A model generated the notes under the pieces. That model worked only from the letters and a program-made list of their open reading frames with translations. It was not told where the DNA came from and did no database searches. DNA of 42,173 bases, from assembly GCA_964014485.1 (NCBI GenBank), contig CAXHAT010000052.1:1-42173 (forward strand), given 5' to 3'. This DNA is from an uncultured Deferribacteres bacterium. Its GTDB lineage: Bacteria; Zhuqueibacterota; Zhuqueibacteria; Zhuqueibacterales; Geothermadaptataceae. The position numbers and the translations under genes are program-made. Shown here piece by piece: positions 14,400-30,650 of this stretch (position 1 is its first letter; the number at the start of each line of letters is the position of its first letter).

Positions 14400-14544
14400 A
14401 TTTTTTTATCAAGTTTTCAGTCTTCCAACCGTATTTGCCGTCTTGACCAGGAAGTAACTTCGGAGTCAAACGTTTCAGCGTTTGGAGTGGTTTGTCGTTG
14501 CTGGTGGCGACGATGAATCGTCGCACTCCGAAAAAAGTTACTCA

Positions 14545-14869
14545 CTGATGTTATGTGCCAGCTATGAAGCCAAGGAAACTCCTGTTAAAGTCATTCCCGC
14601 GCAGGCGGGAATCCAGGAGCTGCGTACGATTGACTGGATTCCCGCCTGCCAGGCTGTTGCAGAATAGATTTTCCATAAGATCACGCCTAATAAAATTCGC
14701 GACAAAGCTACAGCGAGCTTCCCACGTGCAACTATATCGCTCATTCGCTTCACAAATTAAGGCCGCGATTGAGAAATTTTCTATTCTGCAACAGCCTGCT
14801 GCGCGGGAATGACGTAAAAGCGAGTTTCATCTGTTCCTGCTTGAGAAATTTTCAAGAGTGCGACATCAT
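14545..14869. mobile_element. MITE family A copy 2 with nested MITE B
   Basis: CTGATGTTATG ... AAGAGTGCGACATCAT; flanks TTACTCA / TTACTTA (6/7); REP doublet inside. Confidence 0.8.
14650..14798. mobile_element. MITE family B inserted in a REP hairpin loop
   Basis: Perfect 18-bp TIR CAGGCTGTTGCAGAATAG / CTATTCTGCAACAGCCTG; 4-bp duplication CTGC (14646-14649, 14799-14802). Confidence 0.85.
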
Positions 14870-16967: not shown

Positions 16968-18803
16968 ATGAACGACTTTACTCCCGCGCCTGTTTTCCAG
17001 AGGCTTTCATCAATCAAACTCATCTCGTCCGCGCTTCTTTTTTTCTTGACCTTCGCCCCGTTGCTTGGACAAGAAGATGTCGTCATCAAAAAAATCAATT
17101 TCCACGGCAACAAAAGCATCCCTGGTTGGATGTTGAAATCCAAAATGACGCTGAAGTCCAAAAGCGGCAATCGCAACAACATTTACAGCGAGGTTTTGTT
17201 GCGAAAGGATTTTGAGCGCTTGCGGGCGTTCTATATCACCGAAGGATTTCTTGCAGCCAAAGTCGACACTTTTGAAATCCAGTCAAAAGCCAACGGCAAC
17301 CGTATTACGCTCAATATTCATCTTTCGGAGGGTGATTCAGTCGTCGTCGCAAATTTGCGATATGCCGCGCGTGACAGCCTTACGAATGCTGTCATTGCGC
17401 GCACCAAACCCAATTTTTTGCTTAAAACCGGCAGGCGCTATCGCGATTTGGCGCTGCTCGCTGACCGCGAAACTTTGTTCCATGCGTTTGCCAACGCCGG
17501 TTTTCCCTACGTGAAGATCACGCCGCGCCCGGAGCTTGATGCGCAAAATTTCAAGCTCAATCTCGCCGTCGAAATCGATCCCGGCCCGCATTGCGCATTT
17601 GACAGCGTTGAAGTGATCGGCAATCAGCGCGTATCCGATCATTTGATTCAAAAGCAGCTCGCGTTTAAATCGGGCAAGTCTTTCTCGCAGAAAAAAATCA
17701 ATACTTCGCAGGCAAACTTGTACGCGCTCGGCTTGTTCGAATTTGTCACGATTCATCCCTTGTTGGAAAATCCGCCCGATTCGACATTGCCGGTGAGAAT
17801 CGAAGTGAAGGAAGCCCCGGATTTTGTTTCCAAACAAGGAATCGGCTGGGGGGCGGAAGATAAATTCCGCGTTTCGGTGGACGCAAAAATGCGCTGGCTG
17901 GGGGGCGGACGGCTGCTGAATATTGTCGCGAAACGTTCGGGCCTGGAGCCGATTAGCTTGGAGGCGGGCTTAACGCAGCCGTCATTTTTGGAAGACAAGA
18001 CAATTTTGAACGTCACGCCTTTTTATAAAACTCAGAAAAACGCGGCTTTTGAGGCGCGGCGATTGGGCGGCACGGTGTCGGCGCAAAGAAAAGTTGCGGC
18101 ATTTACCACTGGCTTTGTGAATTATTTATTCGAAGAAGTGGAAAGCCGCGGCGACGCTTCCGCAGCCGATTCTTTGGAAAAATTTTATAACAAATCCGCC
18201 GTCTCCGCCGGCTTCTGGCGTGACACGAGCGCTCCGCTTTTTTCACCGACGCGCGGCAGTTATGAAGCGGTGACGCTCACGTTTTCAGGGCTTGGGTTAA
18301 ACAGCGTGAAGTTCGCACGGGCTGTGGCGGAGTGGCGCTTTTTTCACAAGCTTCACCGCAGCGGCTTGACGGCGGCGATCAAAGTGAAAGCGGGATATTT
18401 GAAAACGTTTGACGATACGGAAGTGCTGCCTCGGGAAGAGCGTTTTTACGTTGGCGGCAGCAACTCGGTGCGCGGTTGGTCGCTATTTGATCTCGGGCCG
18501 CGAGAGGCTATTTTCGACACTGCGGGTGTTAGCTCGCTGCGCCCGGCGGGCGGTAAGATTCTCTCCGAAAATAGCCTGGAATTGCGTTTCCCAATCTTCG
18601 GCTATTTTTCCGGCGTGGCGTTTTTTGACTTTGGCAATGTTTGGGAAAGCAAAGTTTCAAAACTGCGCTATTCGCCGGGAATCGGTCTGCGTTTCAACAC
18701 GCCCATCGGCCCGCTCCGTTTTGACGCCAGCGAGCCGTTGCAAAAAGACGCGAGCGGGCTGGAAACGCGGCAATATCATTTGAGTATCGGGCACGCTTTT
18801 TAG
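16968..18803 (+). CDS. Omp85 (BamA/TamA-like) outer-membrane protein with about 3 POTRA domains
   Basis: POTRA-like repeats (INFHGNK, VIGNQR..LYALGLF), RFYVGGSNSVRGW, G.GLRFNTPIGPLRFD, C-terminal SIGHAF; start uncertain. Confidence 0.9.
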   Translation: MNDFTPAPVFQRLSSIKLISSALLFFLTFAPLLGQEDVVIKKINFHGNKSIPGWMLKSKMTLKSKSGNRNNIYSEVLLRKDFERLRAFYITEGFLAAKVDTFEIQSKANGNRITLNIHLSEGDSVVVANLRYAARDSLTNAVIARTKPNFLLKTGRRYRDLALLADRETLFHAFANAGFPYVKITPRPELDAQNFKLNLAVEIDPGPHCAFDSVEVIGNQRVSDHLIQKQLAFKSGKSFSQKKINTSQANLYALGLFEFVTIHPLLENPPDSTLPVRIEVKEAPDFVSKQGIGWGAEDKFRVSVDAKMRWLGGGRLLNIVAKRSGLEPISLEAGLTQPSFLEDKTILNVTPFYKTQKNAAFEARRLGGTVSAQRKVAAFTTGFVNYLFEEVESRGDASAADSLEKFYNKSAVSAGFWRDTSAPLFSPTRGSYEAVTLTFSGLGLNSVKFARAVAEWRFFHKLHRSGLTAAIKVKAGYLKTFDDTEVLPREERFYVGGSNSVRGWSLFDLGPREAIFDTAGVSSLRPAGGKILSENSLELRFPIFGYFSGVAFFDFGNVWESKVSKLRYSPGIGLRFNTPIGPLRFDASEPLQKDASGLETRQYHLSIGHAF

Positions 18804-19924
18804 CTGATGCGCTTTTGAAATTTTAGCGCACTCAGTCCAAGAATCACGACGCCAAATGCAGTCAGCGCCAGGATTTCGGTCAGGTAAAATTGCGGCGAGG
18901 TGCCTTTCAAGAATATTTCTCGCAAGATAATGATAAAGTAGCGCATAGGATCAAGATAGGTCGCTTTCTGGATCACTTCGGGCATGTTGGGAATCGGGAA
19001 CATGAACCCGGCCATGAAGATCAGAAAGATCAGGAAAAACCATGAGATAAACATGGCTTGCTGCTGTGTTTTCGCCAGCGTTGAAATAAAAATCCCCAAG
19101 CCCAGCGTCGTCAATAAGTAGAGCGCCGCCAGCAGGAAAAGCAAGACGATACTCCCCGCCGCTTTGAGCTGAAACACTACGAAAGCGACGAGCAGCATGA
19201 TGGCGAGCTCGGCAAAGCCCAAAATCAAAAAAGGCAAGACCTTCCCCAGAATCAATTGCCACTTTTTGATCGGCGTGACCATGAGCTGTTCAAGCGTGCC
19301 GATCTCGGATTCTCGCACCAATCCCATCGACGAAAGAAATGTGCTGACCACGGTCAAAAGCACGGCGATGAGGCCGGGAATCATGTAGTTTTTGCTTTCC
19401 AACTCAAGATTGTACCACATTCTCGTTTCCGGCTCCACAACTCTCGCCTGGGCGAATATCTTCGCGTAAGATTGATCCGCCGCTACGATTTCGGCGGCGA
19501 AGCCTCGCAGCAGTCCCTGCGCATAACCCAGCGCAATGCCGGCGGTGTTGCCGTCCAGGCCGTCGACGATGATTTGAATTTCCGGCTGTGATTTGCGCTC
19601 AAAATCACGAGCAAAGCCTTTTGGAATGATCACAGCCATTTGTGTTTGCCATTCGTCGATCCGGCGGCGAACTTCCGCGTGATCTTTGATGATTTCCTGC
19701 ACGGAAAAGTAAGGCGTGCTTTCAAATTTACGAATGATCTCACGGCTGACGGCGCTGTTGTCGTCGTCAACGATGACGGTTTTGACGTTCTTCACGTCCG
19801 TCGTAATGGCGAAGCCGAGCACGATCATCTGCACGATGGGCGCGAAAAAGATGATCGTCACCATGGCCTTGTCGCGGAAAATCTGGCGAAATTCTTTTTG
19901 TATTAAATACAGAATTTGCTGCAT
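18800..19924 (-). CDS. ABC-2 type transporter permease (YbhR-like)
   Basis: KEFRQIFRD, RESEIGTLEQLMVTP, P..NMP motifs; several TM helices. Confidence 0.92.
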   Translation of the reverse strand: MQQILYLIQKEFRQIFRDKAMVTIIFFAPIVQMIVLGFAITTDVKNVKTVIVDDDNSAVSREIIRKFESTPYFSVQEIIKDHAEVRRRIDEWQTQMAVIIPKGFARDFERKSQPEIQIIVDGLDGNTAGIALGYAQGLLRGFAAEIVAADQSYAKIFAQARVVEPETRMWYNLELESKNYMIPGLIAVLLTVVSTFLSSMGLVRESEIGTLEQLMVTPIKKWQLILGKVLPFLILGFAELAIMLLVAFVVFQLKAAGSIVLLFLLAALYLLTTLGLGIFISTLAKTQQQAMFISWFFLIFLIFMAGFMFPIPNMPEVIQKATYLDPMRYFIIILREIFLKGTSPQFYLTEILALTAFGVVILGLSALKFQKRIS

Positions 19925-19926
19925 GG

Positions 19927-21027
19927 TCAGGCCTCGAGCGTTGTTTTGAATTTCTTGGCGCTGACAACGATGAGAAAAAGGCCGATGGCGGCGAGCACCG
20001 CGAATTGGGGCAGCAATTGCACAAGCGTGTTGCCTTTTAGCATGATCCCACGGATTAAAATCAGAAAGTATTTTGCGGGAACGATGTAGGAAATGCCTTG
20101 CAAAACCGGGGGCAGACTTGAAATCGGAAACATGAAGCCGGAAAGCATCACGCTCGGCAGCAGCGTCATAATTAAAGCGAGCAACATGGCGACTTGCTGC
20201 GTTTGCACGCGGGTTGAAATGAGCAAGCCCATATTCAGCGCAACGAAAATGTAAACAAATGAAGCGATCAGCAACACGCCAAAGCGGCCAACAAAGGGCA
20301 CGTCAAAAACAAATCGCGCGATGCCCAAAATGATGAGCAAATCCACAAAAGCCAAAAAAATGTACGGCACCACTTTTCCAACGATAATCTCGCCCGGGCG
20401 GATTGGGGAGACCAGGATTTGTTCCATCGTTCCGGTTTCTTTTTCCCTGACGATGGCGATGCTTGTGAGCAGCGCCGAAATCATGATCAAAATCAGCGCC
20501 GCCAGACCTGGCACGAAAAAATGGGCGCTTTTCAGAGCCGGGTTGTACCAGATGGCGGTTTCAACGTTGAAAATCGGCTCGGCCGTATATTCGGCGCTGA
20601 AGGATTGCAAAACGCCGGAGGTATAATTGCGGATCAATTGCGCGGCGTTGGGGTCGCTGGCGTCAATGAGAACCTGAACTTTCGTGATCGGCTGCGAAAG
20701 CAGTTTTTTTGAAAAATCCGATGGAATGGTCAAAATAAGCCGGGCTTCGCGATGGGCGAAAAAATTCTCCAGTTGCGATTCCGGCCCGGAAAAACGCTTG
20801 ACCGTGAAAAACTTGCTGCCTTCAAATTTCCGAATCAAAGCATCGCTCTCAACGCTTCGATCATGATCTAGCACCACCGTTTCGATGTTTTGAATTTCCA
20901 GATTGATCGCATAGCCGTACAAAAAAAGCATCGTGACGGGCATGAGAATGACGATCACGAGCGTTCGAAAATCCCGCGAAATGTGGATGAATTCCTTACG
21001 AATAATGGGCCAGATTCTGGTTTTCAT
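19927..21027 (-). CDS. ABC-2 type transporter permease (YbhS-like)
   Basis: KEFIHISRD, REKETGTMEQILVSP; ATG 21027 overlaps the upstream stop (ATGA). Confidence 0.92.
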   Translation of the reverse strand: MKTRIWPIIRKEFIHISRDFRTLVIVILMPVTMLFLYGYAINLEIQNIETVVLDHDRSVESDALIRKFEGSKFFTVKRFSGPESQLENFFAHREARLILTIPSDFSKKLLSQPITKVQVLIDASDPNAAQLIRNYTSGVLQSFSAEYTAEPIFNVETAIWYNPALKSAHFFVPGLAALILIMISALLTSIAIVREKETGTMEQILVSPIRPGEIIVGKVVPYIFLAFVDLLIILGIARFVFDVPFVGRFGVLLIASFVYIFVALNMGLLISTRVQTQQVAMLLALIMTLLPSVMLSGFMFPISSLPPVLQGISYIVPAKYFLILIRGIMLKGNTLVQLLPQFAVLAAIGLFLIVVSAKKFKTTLEA

Positions 21028-21749
21028 TTGTCCACCAAATGAATAAACGTTTCCTGCATCGACGGCTTGCCGTACTGGCGCTTCAAGGCTTCGGGCTTGT
21101 CTAAAGCGATGATTTCTCCGTTGTACATGATCGAAACGCGGTGACAATATTCGGCTTCGTCCATGTAATGCGTGGTGACGAAAACCGTTTTGCCGCGCTC
21201 AGCCAGCCGATAAATCAAATCCCAGAAATTCCGTCGCGCTTCGGGATCGACGCCGCTGGTCGGCTCGTCGAGAAAGATGATTTTTGGGTCGTGCAGCAGC
21301 GCGCAGCCCAAAGCGAGGCGCTGCTTAAAGCCCAGCGGCATATCGGCGGTCATTCGGTCGGCTTCTTGCGTCAAGCCGAGTTCCGAGAGCAATTGCTCGC
21401 GCTTTTCCTTTAGATTTTTCCGGTTCAGGCCGTAAACCCCGCCGTAAAATTCAATATTTTCCGCCAGCGTCAAATCATTGTACAAAGAGAATTTCTGGCT
21501 CATATAGCCGATGCTTTGCTTGATTTTTTCGTTCTCCTTCCAAATATCAAAACCGGCCACCTGGCCGCCGCCGCCCGACGGCAAAAGCAGCCCGCAAAGC
21601 ATACGAATGGCGGTGGTTTTCCCTGCACCGTTGGCTCCTAAAAAACCGAATATCTCACCATAGTCAACGGCAAGATTCAAATTCTTGACAGCCTGAAATT
21701 TACCGAAGCGCTTGCCCAGGCCCTCGGTGGAAACAGCGTAGGAATTCAA
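21024..21749 (-). CDS. ABC transporter ATP-binding protein
   Basis: Walker A GANGAGKT, degenerate signature MPLG, FLDEPTSG, H-loop TTHYMDEAE. Confidence 0.93.
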   Translation of the reverse strand: MNSYAVSTEGLGKRFGKFQAVKNLNLAVDYGEIFGFLGANGAGKTTAIRMLCGLLLPSGGGGQVAGFDIWKENEKIKQSIGYMSQKFSLYNDLTLAENIEFYGGVYGLNRKNLKEKREQLLSELGLTQEADRMTADMPLGFKQRLALGCALLHDPKIIFLDEPTSGVDPEARRNFWDLIYRLAERGKTVFVTTHYMDEAEYCHRVSIMYNGEIIALDKPEALKRQYGKPSMQETFIHLVDK

Positions 21750-22675
21750 ACCGCCCTCTCTTGTTTTTTCATCAACGCCAAAAACGTGTCTTCGATGCTT
21801 GGTTGAATTCTGTGGAAATCTTCAATTTGAACCGGCGCGTTTTGCACGATTTCGTCGATTTGCGCCCGGAGCAGTTCATTCTCAAAGCTCGCGTGCAAGC
21901 GTTCTCCGAAAATCTGCTGTGATCGTGCATCCGTTTCCCGACGGAAAAACGATTCCAGCGCGCGATTGTCGCTGGAGGTCATGTCGTACAAATGATCAGG
22001 GAAAAGCTCGTGCAGGTTTTCCGGCTTATCCATCGCCAGGATTCGGCCCTGGTGCATGAACGCGACGCGCGCGCACAATCCCGCTTCGTCCATGTAAGGC
22101 GTTGAAACCAAAATGGTCACGCCTTCTCCCTGAAGCCGCCGCAGTATTTCCCAAAATTCTCGCCGTGAGACCGGATCGACCCCGGTCGTCGGTTCGTCGA
22201 GAATCAGGATTTTCGGCGTGTGGATGAGCGTGCAAGACAGCGCCAGCTTTTGTTTCATGCCGCCGGAGAGATCACCCGCCAGCCGCTTTTTGAACGGCTC
22301 GAGTTTGCTGAATTGGTACAGTTCCGCCATGCGTTCCGCTTTTTCAAGTTTGGAAACGCCGAATAACTCCGCGAAAAAATTCAGGTTTTGCTCAACGGTC
22401 AAATCGGGGTAGAGCGAAAAACGCTGCGGCATGTAACCAAGAATCGAGCGGATCGCCGCAATGTCTTTTCGAACGTCCTTGCCGTCCACTTGCATTTCTC
22501 CCTGCTCGCAAGTAAGCAGCGTGCAGAGCGTTCGCATCATTGTGGTTTTGCCCGCGCCGTCCGGCCCGATCAAGCCGAACAACTCGCCTTCGCGAACGGT
22601 CATCGTCAAATCCGTGACCGCATTTGTGCCGTTATAGGCTTTGCTAAAATTTTTGATTTCGATTGCGTTTGTCAT
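21746..22675 (-). CDS. ABC transporter ATP-binding protein
   Basis: GPDGAGKT, LSGGM, ILDEPTTG, STPYMDEA (Pro in place of the switch His, as in YbhF-type first domains). Confidence 0.93.
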   Translation of the reverse strand: MTNAIEIKNFSKAYNGTNAVTDLTMTVREGELFGLIGPDGAGKTTMMRTLCTLLTCEQGEMQVDGKDVRKDIAAIRSILGYMPQRFSLYPDLTVEQNLNFFAELFGVSKLEKAERMAELYQFSKLEPFKKRLAGDLSGGMKQKLALSCTLIHTPKILILDEPTTGVDPVSRREFWEILRRLQGEGVTILVSTPYMDEAGLCARVAFMHQGRILAMDKPENLHELFPDHLYDMTSSDNRALESFFRRETDARSQQIFGERLHASFENELLRAQIDEIVQNAPVQIEDFHRIQPSIEDTFLALMKKQERAV

Positions 22676-22692
22676 TCTGCGCGAGCTCAAGA

Positions 22693-23937
22693 TTAAAGCT
22701 TGGTCAGCGCCGCGGGCCTGTCGTACCGCACCGCGATTTCGACGGGCATGCCGTGCTTGAGTATTTTGTCGGGATTATCCACGATGACTTTTACGGCGTA
22801 AACGAGCGACGTCCGGCTTTCTTCCGTTAAAATGCTTTTCGGTGTAAATTCCGCTCGCGGGCTGATCCAGGCGACCTGTCCGATGAGCGTTTTGTCGGTA
22901 CCGTCGATGCGAATTTCAGCGTCTTGGCCGACTTCGATGCGCGCCAGCATTTTTTCGGAAATGTAGACTTTTGTCCACATTCTGCTCAGGTCGATTATTT
23001 CCACAATCGGAGCGCCCGTGGGAATCATTTCGCCGGGTTCGAAATATTTCGTCGTGATCGTGCCGGAAAGCGGCGCGACAATCGTGGCGTCGTTGATTTG
23101 CCGCTGGAGCAACTTTTCCTGCGCCGCCAAGCCTTTTTGCTTGCTTCCGACCACGGCGATGCTTTGCCGGGCGTTTTGCAGCGCGGTTTTTCGCGTGTCA
23201 TACGCCGCTTTCAAATCATCCAGAACTTGCCGGGACGCGGAGTTTTTTTCGTAAAGATCAAGATAACGGCGATATTTTTTTTCAATGTGATCGTGCTCGG
23301 TTTTCGCCATGCTCAACGCATTGAGATTGATTTGGCGCTGCACGCCCAACTCTTCAATCGCAGCCTGCGTTTGCTCCAATTGATAGGCCAATTTTTCCGT
23401 ATCCACCGCCGCGATGGCCAAGCCTTTTTGAACGTCTTCGCCCTCTTCAAAATAAATGTTCTGAATGCAGCCGCCCGTCTGCGCGCCGACTTTCACGCTC
23501 GTGCCTTCGACAATGCCGCTGGCCGTGAATTCCTTCTTGTCGTCATTGCCGCAGCCTGCCAAAATCCCGGCGGCGATAAAAACTAAATAACAGAAATTAC
23601 GCACTGGCTTTAGAATGCCAAAACTTCCATTTTGGTCATTTCCGCGGAGCAGGCTGTTGCAGAATAGCAAAAAAGTGGGCGCAAAGCGCCGAACCTGCAT
23701 TCCAACGCGAAGCATTGGAACGAGACGTAGTGTTTTGAGAAATAAAGAGTTGCTTCCCGTTCCCATGCTTTGCGTGGGAATGCAGCAAGGGCGCTTTGCG
23801 CCCATTCTGCAACAGCCTGGAAGGCGGGAATCCAGATATTGGTGCGATTTCCTGGATTCCCGCCTCCGCGGGAATGACATGGAAGGAGTTTTTCGAGATA
23901 AATCACGTAACGCCAACAAATAATAATTGAATCGCAT
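22693..23937 (-). CDS. HlyD/efflux periplasmic adaptor lipoprotein (YbhG-like) with an in-frame 111-codon MITE insertion in its signal peptide
   Basis: GGAGG RBS before ATG 23937; lipobox LAGC; SGIVEG, APLSG, AEFTPK, LKHGMP motifs; removing the insertion gives MRFNYYLVFIAAGILAGC. Confidence 0.88.
   Translation of the reverse strand: MRFNYYLLALRDLSRKTPSMSFPRRRESRKSHQYLDSRLPGCCRMGAKRPCCIPTQSMGTGSNSLFLKTLRLVPMLRVGMQVRRFAPTFLLFCNSLLRGNDQNGSFGILKPVRNFCYLVFIAAGILAGCGNDDKKEFTASGIVEGTSVKVGAQTGGCIQNIYFEEGEDVQKGLAIAAVDTEKLAYQLEQTQAAIEELGVQRQINLNALSMAKTEHDHIEKKYRRYLDLYEKNSASRQVLDDLKAAYDTRKTALQNARQSIAVVGSKQKGLAAQEKLLQRQINDATIVAPLSGTITTKYFEPGEMIPTGAPIVEIIDLSRMWTKVYISEKMLARIEVGQDAEIRIDGTDKTLIGQVAWISPRAEFTPKSILTEESRTSLVYAVKVIVDNPDKILKHGMPVEIAVRYDRPAALTKL
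23591..23916. mobile_element. Diverged MITE family A copy 3 inside the HlyD coding sequence
   Basis: Degenerate ends CAGAAATTACGCA ... CACGTAACGCCAA; flanks TAAATAA (23584-23590) / CAAATAA (23917-23923); REP doublet ending CTGGATTCCCGCCTCCGCGGGAATGAC. Confidence 0.75.
23650..23819. mobile_element. MITE family B copy 2 carrying a third REP family
   Basis: TIR CAGGCTGTTGCAGAAT / ATTCTGCAACAGCCTG; flanks GGAG / GAAG; internal CTGCATTCCAACGCGAAGCATTGGAACGAG and CCCGTTCCCATGCTTTGCGTGGGAATGCAG inverted pair. Confidence 0.82.
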
Positions 23938-23951
23938 TCTCGCCTCCTGAT

Positions 23952-25271
23952 CTAAATTTCTTCGTGAATGGTTCCCGCCGCCTTGCGCAGATCGGCAAGA
24001 AAAACATAGTACTGAATCAGCGCCTGCCTGGTTTTTAGCGCCGCGCTGGTCAAGTCGGCCTCCGCTTTAATCAAATCATTCGTCGGCGCAACCCCCGCTT
24101 GATGCTGGACAACCAGAATGCGGTAGCGCTCATTTTCCTGCGACTCCAACTGTTCGGCGAGCGTGACTTGCTGCAAGCTGAACTGCAATTTTTCGAACCC
24201 TTCTTCAATTTCGTACTCAATCGCGCGCAACACTTCTTTTTCTCGCAGCGTCAGGCGGTCAAATTCGATAGCCTGCGCCTCGATTCTGCGGCGATCCGCC
24301 TGCCAGCGCCACAAATTCCATTGCAGGTTTACGCCCACGGAAAAATAGCCCATCCAGGCATTGGCGACCGGATCCAGACCCGGCTTGGAATACTGGTAAT
24401 TCGCGTGCAAAAAAGCAGACGGGTAGTAATTTGATCTGGCCAGCTTTTGACGCAGCGCCGCGCTTTTTTGCGCGAAACGAACCGAACTGAGCTCGGGGCG
24501 ATTCAAGTAAGCGTCGGCTTTCAAATGAGCAATATCCGGCGGATTTTCTTCGGGGCGCGCCAGATCAATTTCCGCGAGAGGGCGCGCCTGCCGCAAGTTT
24601 AGCAAGTGCGCCATTTGCAGCCTCGCGAGACGTGTCGCGAGTTGTGCGTCTTGCAATTCGATCTCGACAGCCAGAATTTGGTTATAAACCTGGAGCGTAT
24701 CAAAAGCCATTGCCTGCGCGGCCTCGAACAAATTTCTGGCATTGGTCAATTGCAGCCGCAAGCGACCCAGGCTTGCGTTGAGAATGTTTGTTTGATTGGC
24801 GAGGCTTTGGAAACGGTAGAAAATCAAATGGACGTGGTGGTAGATTTCGTTTTCCAACAAGGCGAGTTTTTCAGCCTCGTTGAGTCTGGCGGTGCGCGCC
24901 AAATCCGCTATTGAGCGCAAACGAAATCCGGTAAAAAGCGGCTGTTGCACGCGCAATCTCAACTCCGCGCGTTCGTGTCCTCCCAATTGAATGCGCCGCC
25001 CCGCAACGCCGATGGTTTCGCTCAAGTCGATCTCGTTGACTTTGGAGAGATACTCTGACGCCGCGACGAAATCAAGCGTTGGACGCAGTCCCGCCTTTGC
25101 CGCCAGCTCTTCCATGCGGGCGATTTTCTGACTTTCCTGCTGCTGTTGTATTCGTAAATTATTCGCCTTCGCCAAGCGCAAGGCTTCGGGCAAATCGAGC
25201 GGCGTTTGTGCGAGACTGGTGTGAACGAAAAAAATAAAAGGGAGAGCGAAAACGATTCTGAAGCTTCTCAT
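23952..25271 (-). CDS. TolC family outer-membrane efflux protein
   Basis: Signal peptide; LDLPEALRLAKANN, QPLFTG, NRPEL, ARSNYYP motifs; first gene of the efflux operon. Confidence 0.9.
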   Translation of the reverse strand: MRSFRIVFALPFIFFVHTSLAQTPLDLPEALRLAKANNLRIQQQQESQKIARMEELAAKAGLRPTLDFVAASEYLSKVNEIDLSETIGVAGRRIQLGGHERAELRLRVQQPLFTGFRLRSIADLARTARLNEAEKLALLENEIYHHVHLIFYRFQSLANQTNILNASLGRLRLQLTNARNLFEAAQAMAFDTLQVYNQILAVEIELQDAQLATRLARLQMAHLLNLRQARPLAEIDLARPEENPPDIAHLKADAYLNRPELSSVRFAQKSAALRQKLARSNYYPSAFLHANYQYSKPGLDPVANAWMGYFSVGVNLQWNLWRWQADRRRIEAQAIEFDRLTLREKEVLRAIEYEIEEGFEKLQFSLQQVTLAEQLESQENERYRILVVQHQAGVAPTNDLIKAEADLTSAALKTRQALIQYYVFLADLRKAAGTIHEEI

Positions 25272-25307: not shown

Positions 25308-25481
25308 GTGATGTTACGCACTCTTGGAAATTTCCCAAATAGCACCTGAAAAAAGTTACTTTTACTTCATTCCCTCGCGGACGGGAATCCAGGGGCTGTG
25401 CGCGATTGACTGGATTCCCGCCTGCGCGGGAATGACTTTAACGAGAGTTTCTAGGGCGTCACGGCTGACGCGTAACATCAG
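25308..25481. mobile_element. MITE family A copy 4 (no nested insertion; basic form)
   Basis: GTGATGTTACGCA ... CGCGTAACATCAG; perfect 7-bp duplication TTACAAC (25301-25307, 25482-25488); REP doublet inside. Confidence 0.88.
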
Positions 25482-30430: not shown

Positions 30431-30650
30431 TTGATGTTACGCGACAATGATATGGCATTTGATTAAAAGCTTTGCTTCACACGTCATTCCTGCAGAGGCA
30501 GGAATCCAGAAAATGGTGCACGGCCACTGGATTCCTGCCTCCGCAGGAATGACCTTGAAAAACCGTTTTTGGGTCAAGCAGCTTTTACAATATTCGACGT
30601 GACCGAAAACCAATCTACGACATGCATTACTGGCAAGCGCGTAACATGAG
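30431..30650. mobile_element. MITE family A copy 5 (different arms, REP variant)
   Basis: TTGATGTTACGCG ... CGCGTAACATGAG; perfect 7-bp duplication TTAAGAA (30424-30430, 30651-30657); GTCATTCCTGCAGAGGCAGGAATCCAG / CTGGATTCCTGCCTCCGCAGGAATGAC doublet. Confidence 0.85.

Follow-up and report, generated by a model that had tools for sequence, protein, structure and literature searches.

We describe a nested miniature inverted-repeat transposable element (MITE) that lies, in frame, within the n-region of a lipoprotein signal peptide. It resides in a 42,173-nt stretch of DNA (here termed the window), which is contig C52 of the genome of an uncultured Deferribacteres bacterium, a metagenome assembly of 8.40 Mb in 465 contigs with 50% G+C. 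The composite spans 326 bp (23591..23916), consists of an outer MITE carrying a nested inner MITE, and interrupts the gene for a HlyD/YbhG-type periplasmic adaptor lipoprotein (22693..23937, minus strand; 414 codons, including the 111 of the insert), between the original Shine-Dalgarno sequence and ATG on one side and the hydrophobic core and lipobox on the other. Judging from its sequence, the adaptor is probably still translated from the ATG at 23937 through the element, with the resulting leader being removed and only open versions of the insert surviving. The insert is most readily interpreted as selfish DNA that the gene tolerates, rather than as an adaptation.

The limits of the composite were derived from an alignment with eight other composites of the same genome, which share common ends and AT-rich 7-bp duplications, from a terminal-repeat scan, and from BLAST repeat coverage (~23620-23915). 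Read on the plus strand, the target-site duplication is CAAATAA on the start-proximal side (23917..23923) and TAAATAA on the distal side (23584..23590), a 6/7 match. The start-proximal outer terminal inverted repeat (23903..23916) matches the family consensus CTGATGTTACGCAC at 8/14 positions and the distal one (23591..23604) at 11/14; the latter begins, in the sense of the gene, with a GTG (23604-23602). Within this outer layer, the 170-bp inner MITE (23650..23819) is bounded by 16-bp terminal repeats (23650-23665 and 23804-23819) and by a 4-bp duplication with one mismatch (GGAG at 23646-23649, GAAG at 23820-23823). Next to it, on the minus strand, lies an intact hairpin arm (23852..23879) with two mismatches to the published 28-nt consensus of the Neisseria Transformation Sequence (NTS), which comprises the 20-bp dRS3 motif plus flanks and is the target of Ssn nucleases (PMC11893778, cited throughout from excerpts of that paper). 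A second NTS-type arm, on the plus strand, has its halves separated by the inner MITE (first half 23635..23649, other half 23820-23835).

The inner MITE of the window copy is itself unusual in that a 129-bp palindromic core (23676..23804) replaces the canonical one. Its inverted-repeat structure and its alignment to 12 further members of a third repeat family (~150 bp) revealed that both halves of that repeat, in permuted order, build the core. A simple third nested insertion was thereby ruled out. Our sequence-only reading of the window had described a nested two-family composite; the nesting and its location in the signal-peptide n-region stand, but three repeat families are involved rather than two.

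Together with its 7-bp duplication, the composite adds 333 bp, or 111 codons, after codon 7 of the adaptor gene, without a stop in the adaptor frame. The inner MITE and its duplication account for 174 bp (58 codons) and the outer remainder for 159 bp (53 codons). In-silico removal of the whole composite, of the inner element alone, or of the 129-bp core alone left the open reading frame (ORF) open and in frame each time, and full excision restored a signal peptide of 18 residues. These values, recomputed here, reproduce those of the sequence-only reading, as does the GTG at 23602-23604, an in-frame codon within the outer terminal repeat. That reading had also taken the frame neutrality of each layer as meaningful; the arithmetic is correct, but for the inner layer it is no independent evidence, as will become clear below. 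The peptide encoded by the insert is basic (20 Lys plus Arg, 4 Asp plus Glu) and contains six Cys, and its RNA is predicted to fold into a hairpin of -177 kcal/mol (z -13.3).

None of the adaptor homologues examined carries the insert. We compared nine orthologous loci from published relatives (L002-L007, L009, L011 and L012), without relying on two unpublished genomes, and in each the encoded protein runs from Met through a basic residue and a hydrophobic stretch to the lipobox Cys in ~20 residues. In a 12-sequence alignment, the insert stands opposite gaps and short N-termini, and all 12 sequences have the lipobox Cys, which is residue 129 in this adaptor. Among 120 listed database homologues, 119 measure 246-360 aa, lack the insert and cover ~59-72% of the 414-aa query, in agreement with the earlier expectation of insert-free proteins of ~300 aa; the sole exception is the database call of this very gene, at 370 aa. 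Annotated as HlyD, YbhG or efflux adaptor, the homologues include several from candidate division KSB1 or Calditrichaeota, and the mature part of the adaptor is 54-68% identical to them without any frameshift. By these comparisons, the insert is lineage-specific.

To delineate the outer family, we scanned the genome for the two 14-nt ends (≤3 mismatches; pairs 100-900 bp apart), using the reversed genome as control. The ends matched 543 and 592 times, as compared to 213 and 229 times in the control, and formed 239 pairs, 88 of which are flanked by a perfect 7-bp duplication and 43 by one with a single mismatch. Removal of overlaps left 129 copies of 128-531 bp, with modes at 174, 242-243, 281-282 and 327 bp. 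Shared terminal inverted repeats and a target duplication of fixed length identify the outer element as a MITE. The window copy is diverged, with 3 and 6 mismatches in its 14-nt ends and 1 in its 7-bp duplication. An autonomous partner with the same ends was not found in this fragmented assembly: a single pair of ends lies 0.9-4 kb apart, and what lies between them is a histidine kinase and an oxygenase rather than a transposase. Further outer-family copies in the window lie at 64-540, ~14530-14860, 30431-30650 and 25308-25481, the last being a 174-bp copy with a perfect duplication (TTACAAC), whose distance to the downstream ATG of the TolC-like gene, in the same operon as the adaptor, is 37 bp.

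How exceptional is an open, in-frame copy? Across the 129 outer copies, the length plus 7 leaves remainders 0, 1 and 2 upon division by three in 41, 53 and 35 cases, that is, without a bias towards multiples of three. Stop-free frames are rare: 99 of the 129 copies have none, and the open fraction per frame falls from 8.9% at 100-170 bp to 0.9% (1/108) in copies longer than 300 bp. Dinucleotide shuffles of the insert were stop-free in 183 of 5000 cases. A rough estimate of the chance of an open in-frame copy is 0.32 x 0.09 x 0.5, or ~0.014.

An intragenic census pointed in the same direction. We excised 130 duplication-defined copies in silico and searched for ORFs across the empty site, requiring spanning ORFs to be 300 or more codons long and to extend 25 or more codons to either side. 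Five copies passed. Two of these (C42:10424 and C136:11362) were ruled out as out-of-frame intragenic copies, for they mark natural 3' ends: alignments with homologues stop at residue 396-399 of the 400-residue query, where the element begins. A third (C116:18313) resembles a 5'-leader site, a judgement made from sequence and not from homology. The remaining two are the window copy (C52:23591), in frame and stop-free, and a copy within a GT4 glycosyltransferase gene (C2:122535-122689; 155 + 7 = 162 bp, perfect 7-bp duplication), likewise in frame and stop-free. The latter adds 54 codons in a glycosyltransferase loop, and the orthologue in relative G001 lacks exactly residues 216-267. Thus, the only other intragenic copy among the 130 is a multiple of three and open, and the proposition that intragenic copies are not frame-random was borne out.

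The palindrome ATTCCCGC-N4-GCGGGAAT is the dRS3 motif and, with its flanks, fits the 28-nt NTS consensus (PMC11893778). This consensus occurs 69 times exactly and 173 times within one mismatch in the genome, and not once in either form in the reversed-genome control; a looser palindrome pattern returned 395 sites in 281 clusters (control: 2). A 24-nt NTS-like pattern was found 265 times, as compared to 0-48 times in 40 relatives, 26 of which have none. The expansion of NTS-type repeats is hence specific to this lineage.

Hairpin clusters fall within stop-to-stop ORFs of at least 300 codons in 64 of 281 cases, as opposed to 69% of random 65-bp spans, and 54 clusters lie at least 25 codons inside such ORFs on both sides. 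Many of the intragenic hairpins are ~22-residue inserts in giant polyketide synthase/non-ribosomal peptide synthetase (PKS/NRPS) ORFs. Two of these were scanned with Pfam: a protein of 3146 aa (C3:18586-28023; KS-AT-aminotransferase-C-A-PCP-TE) and one of 2752 aa (C114:12922-21177; KS-AT-DH-MT-ER-KR), each with up to three in-frame NTS-type hairpins. Most of the hairpins lie between domains, and at least one lies within an adenylation domain. Further giant PKS/NRPS ORFs with in-frame NTS-type hairpins are located on C101, C159, C298 and C8. The repeats are thus depleted from genes, and the ones still found there can be read through, as a frame filter would predict; this filter acts genome-wide. 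Together with the rarity of stop-free frames in the outer family and the open glycosyltransferase copy, this supports the earlier proposal that selection keeps the frame open.

The inner MITE has 10 full copies genome-wide, nine of them exactly 149 bp long; besides the copy in the adaptor gene, they lie on contigs C112, C115, C169, C215, C247, C25, C37, C52 (at 14650) and C71. All 10 sit at the N4 centre of the hairpin palindrome. Nine are flanked by 4-bp duplications (eight perfect, the window copy with its one mismatch), and the tenth, on C247, by the unrelated tetramers GAAG and CTCC. The duplicated tetramers vary from copy to copy (CTGC four times, GGAA, GGAG, and GAAG twice). Given the invariable position and the differing duplications, the inner MITE is site-specific for the hairpin loop and has inserted repeatedly and independently. 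Each of the nine canonical copies, with its duplication, amounts to 149 + 4 = 153 bp and, in the window frame, is stop-free in one orientation and has three stops in the other. As the multiple-of-three length of the inner layer is a property of the family, it is uninformative about this locus.

Does the hairpin expansion have an enzymatic counterpart? NTS-type repeats have been linked to small single-domain GIY-YIG single-stranded DNA nucleases such as SsnA (PMC11893778). Four small single-domain GIY-YIG ORFs of ~95 aa are present in the genome (C343:147-434, C229:3650-3868, C86:29817-30044 and C156:9870-10094), one of them with an NTS-type repeat ~50 bp beyond its stop codon. By sequence, we regard them as candidate Ssn-type nucleases for the NTS-like repeats; searches of NCBIfam and PDB returned no assignment to the Ssn family (cd10448) for the four. 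A derivation of the hairpins from repetitive extragenic palindromes (REP) and their associated Y1 transposases (RAYT) was rejected, since none of seven Y1-transposase matches has a palindrome within 1.5 kb.

Are signal peptides a favoured landing site? One further case came to light: at C25:43907-43980, a ~72-bp hairpin-only element lies in frame between an AGGAGG-preceded ATG and the signal-peptide hydrophobic core of a secreted HEAT-repeat protein, whose homologues have signal peptides of 22-24 residues; here, too, a GTG follows just past the hairpin. A candidate third case (C137:8105) is ambiguous, a Met and a complete signal peptide coming after the element. Two of ~60 in-frame copies in so small a target as signal peptides is suggestive. 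The sequence-only reading had cast cleaved signal peptides as safe havens for such DNA; the HEAT-repeat protein adds one example, but the notion is weakened by the many other in-frame copies that reside in PKS/NRPS-type ORFs and by the one in a glycosyltransferase.

Leader regions harbour related elements as well. Sites in front of genes are often upstream of signal-peptide- or lipoprotein-like N-termini (for example, C52:30431, C82:16444, C1:39527, C247:545, C340:4685 and C40:39468). A longer hairpin-containing repeat reads in frame into downstream ORFs at C129:15127, C169:11004, C24:40229, C39:3260, C205:8577 and C105:7848, several of which begin with signal-peptide-like stretches. This longer repeat is probably a leader-region element and may carry expression signals.

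The adaptor gene belongs to an efflux operon of six minus-strand genes in a row. A TolC-like outer-membrane efflux gene comes first (23952..25271; Pfam OEP), followed by the adaptor (HlyD_D23, 6.6e-21; HlyD_3, 1.9e-16), two ABC ATPase genes (21746-22690 and 21024-21749; ABC_tran) and two ABC-2 permease genes (19927-21147 and 18800-19924; ABC2_membrane_3). The stretch 18800..22690 is tightly packed and, as genes in the operon abut or overlap, translational coupling is plausible. By Pfam, all five neighbours are full length, and the operon and the adaptor gene are intact. The adaptor has 12 matches within the source genome.

Upstream of the adaptor, a perfect AGGAGG (23943..23948, minus strand) precedes the ATG (23935-23937) by 5 nt, and the 16S rRNA tail in the source genome ends in ...GGATCACCTCCTTTC, providing a canonical anti-Shine-Dalgarno sequence. 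The GTG at 23604 has no Shine-Dalgarno-like sequence within the preceding 30 nt. At the other end of the insert, the lipobox L-A-G-C occupies 23551..23562, with the Cys codon at 23551-23553 corresponding to residue 129 of the 414-aa reading. The public gene call of 370 aa starts at Met45 within the element, thereby missing both the original ATG and the GTG, and is an annotation artefact.

In the reading that we consider probable, a non-autonomous transposon landed after codon 7 of the adaptor gene and generated a 7-bp AT-rich duplication; the central NTS/dRS3-type hairpin of this copy holds a second, site-specific MITE, acquired before or after that landing. Ribosomes would still start at the old ATG at 23937 and read through the ~300-nt hairpin, yielding a 414-aa precursor with a 128-residue leader. 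The basic leader would remain in the cytoplasm and the hydrophobic core insert N-in, as an internal signal with a lipobox; cleavage before Cys129 by the lipoprotein pathway would then remove the entire leader, leaving a mature adaptor that does not differ from that of relatives. A stop or frameshift would cost expression of the adaptor and, probably, of the pump genes downstream; such versions would have disappeared, and only in-frame, stop-free ones would survive. A stop would leave the remaining adaptor message untranslated, with polarity on the four close-packed downstream genes likely.

Several points weigh against this scenario. The predicted 128-residue lipoprotein leader is far longer than the ~20-residue signal peptides of homologues, and its six Cys together with the strong hairpin could impair translation or folding. 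With hundreds of copies in the genome, the chance estimate of ~0.014 is low but cannot be neglected, the more so as this copy was chosen for being open, and the frame neutrality of the inner layer, being a family property, adds little. The comparison of 34 sites near 5' ends favours the scenario, in that no gene severed from its start was seen and the window copy alone has a Shine-Dalgarno-preceded start upstream of the junction, but it would overlook starts without a Shine-Dalgarno sequence. There is no close relative, the best database homologue being 68% identical, with no genus-mates among the genomes compared and nothing above 55% in a metagenome scan. Finally, no single exact-matching public contig spans the entire element.

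This last point bears on whether the element could be an assembly artefact, its internal length or content reflecting a wrong join within high-copy repeats when the metagenome was assembled into 465 contigs. Three DNA runs of a single marine-metagenome study have public contigs that are identical to our sequence over 23550-23700, 23762-23873 and 23849-24200, and these jointly read across the two gene/element junctions, the two inner/outer junctions and the two boundaries of the core. Support for each junction, as the sequence-only reading had called for, is thus at hand, but none extends across the whole element: the last link (23849-23873) passes through the high-copy hairpin arm (~250 copies), and some contigs end within these repeats. 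The three runs are probably the source of the assembly itself and hence not independent; no empty-site joint is listed among their contigs. With exact contigs across every boundary and matching terminal repeats and duplications on both flanks, we give a mis-join hardly any credence. Elsewhere in the assembly, contigs end in or next to an NTS-type repeat (for example, C25:32-55, C27:30-53, C31:1-24, C37:7-30 and C45:26-49), and the repeats are therefore a likely cause of its fragmentation.

A different start codon would dispense with the long leader. If the functional start had moved to the GTG at 23604, brought in by the outer terminal repeat, the protein would begin M-R-N-F-C-Y, continue into the native hydrophobic core and lipobox, and possess an 18-residue lipoprotein signal peptide of normal length, sidestepping the export of 128 extra residues; the ATG-to-GTG stretch would then be reduced to an incidental leader ORF, its frame open by chance or maintained solely to let ribosomes unwind the hairpin. 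The GTG is in frame, the family consensus, which begins GTGCGT, supplies such a codon in many copies, and the HEAT-repeat case has one in the equivalent place. We nonetheless consider this shift unlikely. The GTG lacks a Shine-Dalgarno-like sequence and stands at the foot of the -177 kcal/mol structure, the ATG has an ideally spaced AGGAGG, and a sufficient GTG would need no open frame upstream, yet the frame is open against odds of ~1-4% (no stops) times about one third (length). That the adaptor was instead inactivated or crippled, its frame open by chance and its decay still to come, is improbable. Other HlyD-type genes could substitute, as the 12 genomic matches would allow, the leader has six Cys and strong RNA structure, and with hundreds of copies even a chance of ~0.014 has to be reckoned with. 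Against this, the mature part is intact and conserved, all five neighbouring genes are full length, the copy looks old from its mismatched ends and duplication and is stop-free all the same, and the other intragenic copy, in the glycosyltransferase, is also in frame and open. It is very improbable, too, that the hairpin was co-opted as a regulator—slowing or gating ribosomes, or offering a site for RNase III or an Ssn-type nuclease—and retained for setting the adaptor-to-pump ratio or efflux expression: there is nothing locus-specific about it, the same elements occurring in unrelated genes and mostly between genes, and it is conserved in no relative. The structure is extremely stable, however, a second copy precedes the first ATG of the operon, and in Neisseria and Yersinia, MITE hairpins reportedly influence the fate of mRNAs (PMC2229807, in excerpt).

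In-frame insertion of MITEs is already known: ERIC/RU-1, YPAL/RU-2, the 107-bp Correia element and the Rickettsia palindromic elements (RPE) are established examples (excerpts of PMC2229807 and PMC10969869). The window element adds to this class, whose in-frame events had been best documented in Rickettsia. RPE sit in frame within ORFs (Ogata et al. 2000; PMC2229807, PMC10969869) and share with the repeats described here a hairpin structure of ~100-150 bp, the in-frame, stop-free placement in conserved genes, the large number of genes affected and their interpretation as tolerated selfish DNA. What we found at the adaptor corresponds: an in-frame, stop-free insert in a conserved gene, absent from orthologues, with recurrence across unrelated genes of the genome (the GT4 glycosyltransferase, the secreted HEAT-repeat protein, PKS/NRPS ORFs and the 54 hairpin clusters). 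The present case differs in its setting, an 8.4-Mb marine genome of free-living type, and in its nested, composite build, its well-defined terminal repeats and duplications and its place in a signal-peptide n-region; the likeness drawn here is one of description.

Signal-peptide involvement has a precedent in Yersinia YPO1552, where a MITE contributes part of the predicted signal peptide (Delihas; PMC2229807), and in the literature on intragenic bacterial MITEs and signal peptides, as far as abstracts and listings show, only two papers by Delihas were relevant. Like the enterobacterial and Neisserial MITEs (PMC2229807), the window element offers an open frame fused in frame to a gene. Unlike that at YPO1552, it splits an existing, conserved lipoprotein signal peptide rather than making a new one, and it is two-layered and 111 codons long. 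With the Neisseria NTS/dRS3 system, the genome has in common the 28-nt consensus in a hairpin arm and small single-domain GIY-YIG ORFs, whose Ssn membership is putative (PMC11893778); what differs is that the repeats are here built into MITEs and occur in frame within many ORFs, and the excerpts of that paper make no mention of intragenic copies. They do list Rickettsia among the genomes rich in Ssn-related motifs (PMC11893778). A full-text literature search with four hairpin-encoded peptides found no paper.

Three aspects set the present case apart: the nesting with an inner element specific for the hairpin loop, the extension of a lipoprotein signal peptide by 111 codons, and a genome-wide scale comparable to that in Rickettsia within a large marine genome. 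One might go further and propose, tentatively and with considerable doubt, that NTS/dRS3-type hairpins and their MITEs are a general source of RPE-like coding palindromes beyond Rickettsia, with the n-regions of cleaved Sec and lipoprotein signal peptides as a preferred safe site, where more than 100 extra residues would be tolerated because the leader is discarded. On this view, the genome would display the two facets side by side, with at least 54 in-frame copies, several of them in PKS/NRPS-type ORFs and for the most part outside domains, and the two signal-peptide cases.

If the 414-aa precursor is indeed made and processed, the n-region of a lipoprotein signal peptide can bear a foreign segment of 111 residues, which would bear on how the Sec and Lgt/Lsp machineries read their signals as well as on where gene callers place start codons. 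More broadly, the genome exemplifies a Rickettsia-like colonisation of coding sequence by NTS/dRS3-type repeats in a large environmental genome, and the copies located between polyketide and non-ribosomal peptide synthetase domains provide a natural data set of insertion-tolerant sites.

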